Origin: Octopus vulgaris
Lineage: Eukaryota
Assembly (NCBI GenBank): GCA_951406725.2
Contig: OX597824.1
Location: 44,950,001-45,014,000 of the forward strand
Length of the DNA: 64,000 nt
Direction of reading: 5' to 3'
In this document: positions 34,156-36,446 of the stretch, one piece after another
Numbering within the stretch: the first letter of the stretch is position 1
Layout: each line of letters opens with the position of its first letter
Position numbers and translations under genes: made by a program
Notes under the pieces: generated by a model
What the model was told of the DNA's origin: nothing
Seen by the model: only the letters and a program-made list of their open reading frames with translations
Database searches by the model: none

Positions 34156-34835
34156 ATATTGTTTAATAATAGCTTGACCCAGCTCCATGCAACTCAATAT
34201 TTTGTAGGCTCATAGAACTAACCTAATTCATCAGGCACCTGGAGATTAAATAACAGGAAGAAGCTAATTCAAGATGGCTTTAGCTGTTAGGCTGCTATTG
34301 GTCTATTCAGGCCACATGGTGTTATTGGTCTGAAAGTGATGTCAAATCTTATCTTTGCTCTTAGGCCCACGTGATTGGACAGGATGATGGTGGGTAACTG
34401 TCACCGCTATATCTGAAGATTGTGGTATGGTTTATTTAGCAACATCAGTTTGTTGCATTTGTTGCTGCATATGACAGAGTTGGGTGTTGTGGTAGGTTAG
34501 TGGAGAACTAAGACCATTGTGGAGACAGCTTTTCTATGATTTGTTAGTGCTAGGTTAGATCGTCAGCTTCTTATAGAAGTAACAGGGGAGTCAAATAACA
34601 TGCCCTTGAGTATGGGGCAGGCAAGCGTAAGTAATTAATACATGTAACTCTTACTAACTCTTCTTTCACTTGTCCACTCGTATATATATATATATATATA
34701 TATATATATATATATATATGTGTGTGTGTGTGTGTGTGTGTATTTCATTGGTAAAGCATAAATCTGAAAAAGAAGCACACTAAGTTATAGAGCAATACAC
34801 AATATAAATATAAAGTTAGATGAGGCCAGTTTATA

Positions 34836-34894
34836 GGATTACCCTGGGTTTCATGTCCATAAAGCATTTAGCTTTACAGCGTATCATCGGATCC
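34836..34894 (-). ncRNA. Type I hammerhead motif with mutated core
   Basis: Minus strand: ggat CCGATGA ..ttatggacat GAAA cccagg GTA atcc. The core has C in place of U4. Confidence 0.55.
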
Positions 34895-35498
34895 AAAAAT
34901 CTGTTGGCCTCTCTAGTGAGTAGTCTCTCTAGAATCTAGAGGAGGAAAGGGGATTGTCTCACTTTGGCTATCAATCGCCAGTGACCCTGTTATCCTGTGG
35001 GTTCCAATAGAGCAGCAGGAATTTCCTTAAATGCAAGCACAGTCCAAAGACCTCTGTTCTGGAGTTAAGAATGTTCCCTAGGTCGAGGGAGTCCTTTAGA
35101 ATCCTCACCCATTCTACTACATATAGTTTACAGTGCTGGTCCTGTTTATGTAGGGGCCTGGATTTTCTAGGATTCTTCATGATATTGTGTATGGAATCCC
35201 ATTGTCTTTCAGTTGCCATACATGGCTGGCTAATGACATAACATATTACTTTTCCAGTATCCTGAAGGAAGATATTGGTTGGAGAGGCATTGTTTGAACA
35301 TGTTCTTGGTGCTGTTTCTGTTGGTGTTGCCATTGCTGCTACCACTGTTGTTAGTACTGCTATTTTTGGTACTGGTACTGTTGGTGCTGTCTCTGCCAGT
35401 GTTGGTAATGGTGCTGTTGTTGTTGTTGTTATGGTCATCAGTCATTGATGGAGATACTGTCACCACTTGCTAGAGAGGCCTTAAGCCAATGAGTTTTG

Positions 35499-35557
35499 AG
35501 ATCTGATGATACACCATAATGTTACATGCTTTATGGATGTGAAACCCAGGGTAATCC
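35499..35557 (+). ncRNA. Type I hammerhead ribozyme motif
   Basis: gat CTGATGA t acaccataa..ttatggatgt GAAA cccagg GTA atc. Stem I gat/atc; stem II acaccataa/ttatgg(a)tgt; predicted cleavage after 35553. Confidence 0.7.
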
Positions 35558-36446
35558 TATAAACTGGCCTTAGCTAACTTTATCTATCTATCTATCTATC
35601 TATCTATCTATCTATCTATCTATCTATCTCTCTCTCTCTCTCTATATATATATATATATATATATGTATATATATATATATATATGTGTGTGTGTGTATA
35701 CACATATATACACAAATATCACATAATATATAACAAAAATACATATATATATATGTAATAGAAATGCAATCACTTAATCACTACGTATAAAATTTAATAC
35801 CACTAACGAGCATACTGTCTTTAAGACAGCATATTAATGCAAGAATACATGCATACATACATACATACATGCATACATACAAACATACCTACATACATAC
35901 ATACATACATTATTATTATTATTATGGCTGCCCCCTCGTTATCGAGTATGGCCATTGCACGAAGCTTAACTGTTACTGGTGCTGTGATCGAATGTGACTT
36001 TTTAGCCCAGCTAAAGATCTACAATGTCTGGTACAAAATTGGCAACTAAAACCTTTACTGGTAATAGCCGGCTGTAGTTGTAACTGGGCTTTATGTACCT
36101 TTGCATGTCGTTTAAGTCCTCCTACCGAATTACACTCTCTTCCACAAGCTCGACAGATATGATTAGTATGGTGTGTTACACCATCACCAATGATACCTTA
36201 CAGTATGAGTTTAATTCATTTCATGACTGAACTTGTCTTATAATTTACTCATTTTACAAATTAATTTTCCCCATTGAAATTAACTGAAAAAAAAACTAAT
36301 CTGTTCCAGCCCCCAAAAACCACTCAAAAATAATTTTAAAACAGAATAAGATGGAATGAGAGCCCCTTATTCTTTTACTCCCTTCCTCTATGTTGTCATC
36401 TTATTGATATATACCATTGTCATTGTTCATATTTTTTCCCCAATTT

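Follow-up and report, generated by a model that had tools for sequence, protein, structure and literature searches.

The window, i.e. the whole stretch of 64,000 nt of Octopus vulgaris DNA that was analysed, harbours two short inverted arms with a hammerhead motif in each, and the DNA between these arms contains the remains of a GIY-YIG endonuclease gene of a Penelope-like element (PLE). In window coordinates, the features of the locus are:

34681-34742, no strand: (TA)n(TG)n microsatellite in the left flank, the probable target repeat in view of the (TA)n preference described for the Hydra clade (Craig 2021, PMC8557442)
34743-34807, minus: extension of about 65 nt beyond the left arm only, a possible one-sided PLE tail whose position fits the tails of related loci
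34808-34924, minus: left arm, most likely the true 3' end (pseudo-LTR segment) of a truncated PLE body, on the same strand as the endonuclease remnant and directly downstream of it
34836-34894, minus: left hammerhead, minimal type I with a mutated core, laid out as in the right arm
34925-34970, minus: 3' UTR between the endonuclease stop (34973-34971) and the shared arm
34971-35132, minus, frame -3: last GIY-YIG endonuclease block, with the first Cys of CxxC, a conserved E, LNSRTE, CxH, KFLL and the stop; profile E 5.6e-6
35133-35275, minus, frame -1: middle endonuclease block (SSFR to GPY.N); profile E 8.7e-8
35276-35320, minus, frame -2: FKQ segment directly after the YIG position, assigned by eye against P0004-P0006
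35300-35461, minus: AAC/ACC/AGC-rich stretch at the expected GIY-to-YIG loop, with an open run of 53 codons in the FKQ frame of which 72% are Asn/Ser/Thr
35462-35585, plus: right arm, most likely a 5'-truncated pseudo-LTR in inverted orientation that was copied from the 3' end of the element, a layout also seen in L009, L006 and L003
35499-35557, plus: right hammerhead, minimal type I with an intact core, found by the structural descriptor
35581-35754, no strand: (CTAT)n(CT)n(TA)n microsatellite in the right flank, abutting the arm

The inverted arms and their hammerheads

The inverted ends described in an earlier note on this DNA are real: 34802-34924 and 35462-35591 are 80.8% identical over 130 columns (E 2e-26), and each of them carries an outward-facing hammerhead. 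The shared ends of the arms lie at about 34808 and 35585, and the arm alignment has 96 identical positions out of 109, with 7-8 gap columns. No third copy of the arm was found within the 64-kb window. The 17-nt motif that extends from the GAAA to stem I occurs twice in the window as compared to 0.06 expected occurrences, and none of 100 shuffles of the window contained it two or more times.

In the right arm, the order of elements is stem I, CTGATGA (35503-35509), an extra U following A9, a stem II of 9 bp with one bulge, GAAA (35541-35544), a stem III that forms a 4+1+4 palindrome, and the cleavage triplet GUA, which ends at 35553, so that scission is predicted to occur after this position. 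This core matches the conserved CUGANGA / GAAA / UH. The left arm reads CCGATGA at 34890-34884 of the minus strand, which corresponds to a U4C change, with a C.A mismatch at the base of stem II; its scissile site would follow position 34840. With U4C it departs from the conserved core, and it was not picked up by the structural descriptor; the earlier assessment of a mutated left and an intact right core thus stands. The unpaired base after A9, the long helix II and the palindromic helix III are features of the minimal type I, and together with a short helix I they are also described for the minimal hammerheads of PLEs (Cervera and de la Pena 2014, PMC4209133), from which the motifs at this locus differ by an A-U pair at the base of stem II in both arms instead of the usual G10.1-C11.1, and in case of the left copy also by U4C. 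The published Hydra hammerheads have a U after A9, a U before GAA and a 4+1+4 stem III (Craig 2021, PMC8557442).

The structural descriptor found four sites in the window, and three in its strict form that demands a stem II of at least 7 bp (35503+, 36451+ and 38386-), whereas the strict form had no match in any of 30 shuffles. Rfam reported no hammerhead, neither in the whole window at the gathering threshold nor in 34600-35800 at E<=10, and its best matches were microsatellite-driven miRNA models. A narrow covariance model made from six hammerheads of Hydra loci (R2) recovered neither arm. The broad model R3, a second attempt made after R2 from 23 locus hammerheads and built without any sequence of the window, recovered the right arm with E 0.041 and the left arm with E 0.4, at ranks 4 and 6 of 14. 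The palindromic stem III is predicted to form a self-duplex of -11.6 kcal/mol. The minimum-energy fold of the right arm lacks the canonical three-way junction, which did not form either when the core was forced open, and the left arm reaches the canonical fold at 1.5 kcal/mol above its optimum. A consensus fold of the two arms was uninformative, with two-sided changes in 0 of 21 pairs. At the base of stem II, one change between the arms that looks compensatory was discarded, as CpG decay would account for it equally well.

As the two hammerheads lie on opposite strands, no transcript of the locus can contain both of them in sense orientation, and with at most one sense motif per transcript and with arms that would pair with each other, the ribozymes are unable to act as excision termini. 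The locus therefore cannot excise itself as a unit, nor can it form the intramolecular dimer that such motifs need. The predicted fold of the whole element contains 103-107 arm-to-arm pairs, and a read-through RNA would thus fold its arms into a duplex of about 105 bp. Minimal hammerheads have been described to occur in pairs on opposite strands at distances of about 100-700 bp, to require dimers and to have a low activity (Cervera and de la Pena 2014, PMC4209133), and the spacing of 613 bp between the core starts at this locus falls into that range.

The decayed endonuclease and its relatives

The interior had been regarded as some 550 bp of unrecognised and unexplained cargo. This view has to be abandoned, as the interior consists of the 3' end of the element's own endonuclease gene and its 3' UTR. 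In tblastn searches of the window with 37 related proteins, i.e. P0010 and 36 longer proteins that it retrieved from 75 candidates, 35 matched the interior (frame -1 was matched by 33, frame -3 by 27 and both frames by 25), the matches were colinear and at the C-termini of the proteins, and no match was found elsewhere in the 64 kb. A profile of the relatives' C-termini recognised the middle and the last block with the E-values given above, and no other domain was reported by the profile search in six frames. When the three minus-strand frames are read one after the other, they give three consecutive blocks that resemble the C-terminus of the nuclease; the frame is shifted near 35276 and again near 35133, and it is interrupted by stop codons at positions 35248 and 35179. 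In the FKQ segment, the YIG is unrecognisable and the usual Arg reads Cys. The remnant keeps the first Cys, the E, the N and the CxH, but its second Cys is replaced by Tyr, while P0005 and P0006 retain this Cys. The endonuclease stop is followed on the same strand by the core of the left hammerhead after 80 nt, and the distance from the end of the profile to the core is 119 nt, as compared to 85-199 nt in 11 locus cases.

The earlier note had also pointed to an open reading frame at 34971-35438 on the minus strand. This frame exists, but it is not a gene, as it coincides with the frame of the endonuclease over no more than its last ~54 codons, from 35132 on. As a protein it was dismissed, since it is a chimera of frames, with 22 candidates of which none reached E<=1, and without any Pfam family. 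When longer proteins were searched by word index, the middle block gave two candidates, none at E<=0.01, the last block had no usable match in the ESM Atlas, and the endonuclease fragments are unrecognised by Pfam. It is correct that the interior is richer in GC (43% versus 36% in the window), but this is a weak distinction, as 10% of equal-sized windows reach 43% and the left flank also has 43%.

A phmmer search with the middle block (35135-35290, minus strand, stops as X) gave eight matches, six of which are of the endonuclease type: P0004-P0007 are close relatives with 50-73% identity, and P0008 and P0010 are endonuclease C-terminal domains, P0010 with a weak GIY-YIG match in Pfam (E 0.047). 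The remaining two, an Ig-repeat array (P0003) and a tandem peptide with a glycosyltransferase (P0009), were excluded as artefacts of their repeats. The closest relatives, P0004-P0007, are themselves decayed endonuclease tails behind low-complexity sequence, with frames that break at different places. From the arm divergence of 12-14.5%, a protein identity of 70-75% is predicted between sibling copies, and the identities of P0004 (73%) and P0005 (70%) to the remnant are in line with this prediction. Arm and protein divergence are therefore consistent with a neutral decay of the sequences.

Eleven relatives are full-length. They are RT-endonuclease proteins of 690-715 aa that all have RW[KR] and Y.DD in the RT, with DKT in ten and DKG in none of them, and all have the CxCx5C linker and CxxC..EK, whereas CCHH-type or CC-before-YIG motifs are absent from all 11. 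A GxK[FY] pattern, found in nine, is uninformative because it is not position-specific. RWK, DKT, the CxCX5C linker, CxxC..EK and the lack of CCHH are diagnostic of the Hydra clade according to section 11 of Craig 2021 (PMC8557442). Pfam recognised neither the RT nor the endonuclease of the 11 proteins, and a PDB sequence search with the relatives' alignment gave nothing meaningful, so that the assignment to the clade relies on these motifs and on by-eye comparison with published alignments. In case of the copy in the window, from which the RT, the linker and the GIY half are absent, clade membership relies on about 100 decayed codons. Counted by eye, 34 of 73 ungapped positions agree between the fragment and the published endonuclease of Hydra-1_Obim, and both share a segment before LN.R that is two residues longer than in the other relatives. 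The hammerhead of the locus is unlike every Hydra entry in supplementary file S2 of Craig 2021 (PMC8557442), and the family is thus separate from those listed there. It would thus be a new family within the known Hydra-clade PLEs, in an insertion structure that is also known. In the literature consulted, which was mostly open-access, no description of this family, of a long GIY-to-YIG loop or of a Hydra tail hairpin (see below) was found.

The 5' truncation point of the element lies at the far end of the AAC-rich stretch. In 32 ordinary relatives that possess both halves, GIY and YIG are separated by 12-14 residues, Hydra-1_Obim has 26 Asn/Ser/Thr-rich residues at this place by eye, as compared to at least 53 codons here, and P0004-P0007 have 22-237 upstream residues (about 237 in P0005) of which 46-61% are Asn, Ser, Thr or Ala. 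At the sequence level the resemblance of the stretch to the relatives is weak, as even in the best two of 12 comparisons, 11 and 18 of 500 shuffles scored as high. It is conceivable, albeit rather doubtful, that the parent was an autonomous, still transposing Hydra-clade PLE whose GIY-YIG core was split by a very long disordered Asn/Ser/Thr-rich loop. No compared sequence contains both halves around such a long loop, and the GIY half may therefore simply have been lost in a non-autonomous lineage. If the loop was indeed part of an active enzyme, it would extend the Asn-rich inserts of rotifer PLEs into the catalytic core itself: the Asn-rich (AAY)n inserts described for Adineta vaga Penelope ORFs separate either RT from endonuclease or the RT core from the thumb (Arkhipova 2013, PMC3846280), whereas the stretch here immediately precedes the YIG position. 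As a lead, this long low-complexity segment may be of interest to PLE specialists.

Insertion structure and alternative explanations

For comparison, genome contigs were scanned for Hydra-type ORFs, which yielded ten loci (L001-L010). These are Hydra-clade PLEs with (TA)n flanks on bacterial-MAG contigs that most likely represent binned animal host DNA. An inverted copy of the 3' end is present in five of the ten (53 bp in L008, 79 bp in L009, 232 bp in L003, 758 bp in L006 and 1519 bp in L001), and the inverted pairs are adjacent and 92-100% identical. Of the others, L002 and L010 have direct repeats, L004 and L005 are on short contigs, and L007 is complex. Positions 7857-8600 of L009 are a near-exact twin of the locus with an intact endonuclease frame, in the order (TA)n, hammerhead (-), 3' UTR, endonuclease C-terminal half (-), junction, inverted arm with hammerhead (+), and one-sided tail; the inverted arm of this twin has 79 bp at 98.7% identity. 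The head-to-head inverted copy agrees with what is known of insertions of EN+ PLEs, for which an inverted, 5'-truncated copy that adjoins the 5' end, a one-sided tail of 30-40 bp and (TA)n targeting are described (Craig 2021, PMC8557442). In Penelope-13_HM, such a 5'-attached inverted copy likewise results in hammerheads on both strands (same source).

The locus had been described as seated between microsatellites, which applies to the right end that abuts one, whereas the left arm is separated from the (TA)/(TG) run by about 65 nt. Around the ends, no target duplication of 5-12 nt was found, and duplications of 2-3 nt (TA, TAA) cannot be judged in flanks so rich in TA. Further to the left, at 33716-34032, there is a 100-nt tandem repeat of 3.2 copies that is akin to a dispersed short repeat in the window.

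In the related Hydra PLE loci, a hairpin follows the cleavage site after 40-61 nt, on one arm only in four of six inverted pairs and on neither arm in two. It is laid out as GCTC, stem, loop, stem, 2-nt bulge and GAGC, and it is conserved and covarying. Such hairpins are located at:

L003, 5060-5100, minus
L003, 5748-5790, minus
L005, 1770-1813
L006, 4523-4562
L008, 1993-2036
L009, 8536-8584
L010, 5372-5418
L002, 5080-5127

In 11 copies, picked by a pattern that fixed the outer four pairs and left the inner three free, these inner pairs had 12 two-sided changes and were paired in 30 of 33 cells. The hairpin is a candidate RT binding or initiation signal, and as such a testable lead of possible interest to those who study PLEs. 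The tail covariance model R1 did not recover the candidate at 34743-34807; a putative tail hairpin in the window matched a relaxed pattern, but this pattern had been tuned after seeing it, and the independent model R1 missed the hairpin. The same 34743-34807 segment contains, on the minus strand, a polypyrimidine-CAG run like that of a splice acceptor, which may be due to chance.

Taken together, the arms, the hammerheads, the endonuclease remnant and the motifs of the relatives point to one old, dead Hydra-clade PLE insertion that is 5'-truncated and joined head-to-head to an inverted copy of its own 3' end, to which we assign a probability of roughly 0.9. Mechanistically, the RT-endonuclease of an autonomous element would have nicked a TA-rich microsatellite, and reverse transcription would have begun on the element RNA slightly 3' of the hammerhead, as the literature suggests: for a Poseidon element, RT was shown to initiate internally, at a site 3' of the hammerhead, with cleavage being dispensable in vitro (Frangieh 2024, PMC11167929). 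Copying would have come to a halt within the endonuclease gene, after about 650 nt, and a second copy, comprising the last ~125 nt only, would have been added in the opposite orientation at the 5' junction, as described for published insertions. The outcome would be head-to-head inverted ends with hammerheads facing outwards, followed by neutral decay of both parts. As only 96 of the 109 aligned arm positions are identical, with the gap columns in addition, we can only infer that this was a single event, and the same applies to the microsatellite target and the present inactivity; the locus is probably a dead one-off insertion. Several points of the earlier note agree well with this: the locus is PLE-derived, as 35 of 37 relatives match its interior, its ends are inverted pseudo-LTR segments with hammerheads, and it is non-autonomous, as the element cannot encode its own enzymes. 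The idea of equivalent termini of a discrete unit does not hold, since one arm is the real 3' end and the other a 5'-attached inverted copy of a kind whose length varies widely in related loci.

Could the locus nevertheless be a separate, non-autonomous element of PLE origin, bounded by two inverted hammerhead ends and propagated in trans at a constant length of ~780 bp? PLE 3' signals do exist at both ends, PLE proteins have been described to be capable of trans action on sequences located between pLTRs (Arkhipova 2013, PMC3846280), and the four closest relatives are such decayed tails behind low-complexity sequence as well. We nevertheless regard this as highly unlikely, as there is a single such unit in 64 kb, the inverted arms range from 53 to 1519 bp across related loci, the frames of the relatives break at differing places, and the arms would be expected to pair and thereby bury the motifs. 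The 13 differing arm positions and the gaps would be explained if two PLEs of the same family had inserted independently and in opposite orientation into one simple-repeat region, in which case the AAC-rich stretch would belong to the host; similar simple repeats are indeed common in the window, and the stretch resembles the relatives by composition more than by sequence. However, the 64 kb contain no copies other than these two, which are separated by 537 nt, face each other head-to-head and share their end point, adjacent inverted pairs of related loci are 92-100% identical, and P0004-P0007 as well as Hydra-1_Obim have Asn/Ser/Thr/Ala-rich sequence at the same protein position, which leaves a very slim chance for such a coincidence.

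The inverted termini of ~125 nt, the shortness and the lack of an intact ORF are also reminiscent of a cut-and-paste MITE whose terminal inverted repeats arose by chance from PLE ends. The interior is, however, a retroelement endonuclease that continues into one arm, the arm length of relatives is variable, and no 5-12-nt target duplication was found; there is hardly any probability left for this explanation, and the earlier view that the locus is MITE-like without being a cut-and-paste MITE can be kept. As short PLE insertions with inverted ends mimic MITEs, they will be mislabelled by TIR finders, and a hammerhead within a "TIR" is a clue to their nature.

A 5'-truncated Hydra-clade insertion with an inverted 3'-end copy is thus a standard PLE product, its clade is already known from molluscs, and its arrangement has already been described. 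With the C-terminal EN+ PLEs of the Hydra clade (Craig 2021, PMC8557442) it shares the endonuclease C-terminus with CxxC/E/N/CxH, the sense hammerhead ~80-200 nt past the end of the ORF and probably the TA-rich target; the copy in the window is truncated and decayed. In Penelope of Adineta vaga, the pLTRs are also inverted head-to-head, 5'-truncated copies occur between such inverted pLTRs, and one of the arms may have a tail (Arkhipova 2013, PMC3846280). Non-LTR retrozymes are similar in being non-coding and PLE-related and in having type I hammerheads (Cervera and de la Pena 2020, PMC7229834; Li 2026 preprint), but these are described as tandem same-strand units that release a circle, whereas opposite-strand motifs flank ORF remains here; with two motifs on opposite strands and no third copy in the window, identity with a retrozyme was rejected.

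Other elements in the window

A second hammerhead family is present in three copies at 36409-36566 (+), ~38270-38425 (-) and 38421-38557 (+), with model R3 E-values of 2e-6 to 5e-5. The latter two copies are arranged as an outward inverted pair, with hardly any spacer between them and 124 of 136 identical positions, i.e. a version of the same structure without an ORF (~38270-38560), like two palindromic pairs in L003. At ~50100-51050 (+) lies a decayed, internally deleted PLE of another clade, Neptune-like by eye, with RT motifs, a CxxC-type linker and cysteines inside the GIY-YIG. A link between the locus and this remnant was rejected, as no Hydra protein matches the remnant in tblastn. Three further ORF remnants resemble what we take to be a Helitron-type helicase (1700-3334, +), an LTR integrase (17856-18377, +) and an R4/Dong-type non-LTR element (43283-45038, +). 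Weak, isolated hammerhead-like motifs with a palindromic stem III occur at 26955-27012 (+), 32902-32964 (+) and 12262-12321 (-), with R3 E-values of 0.23-0.85.
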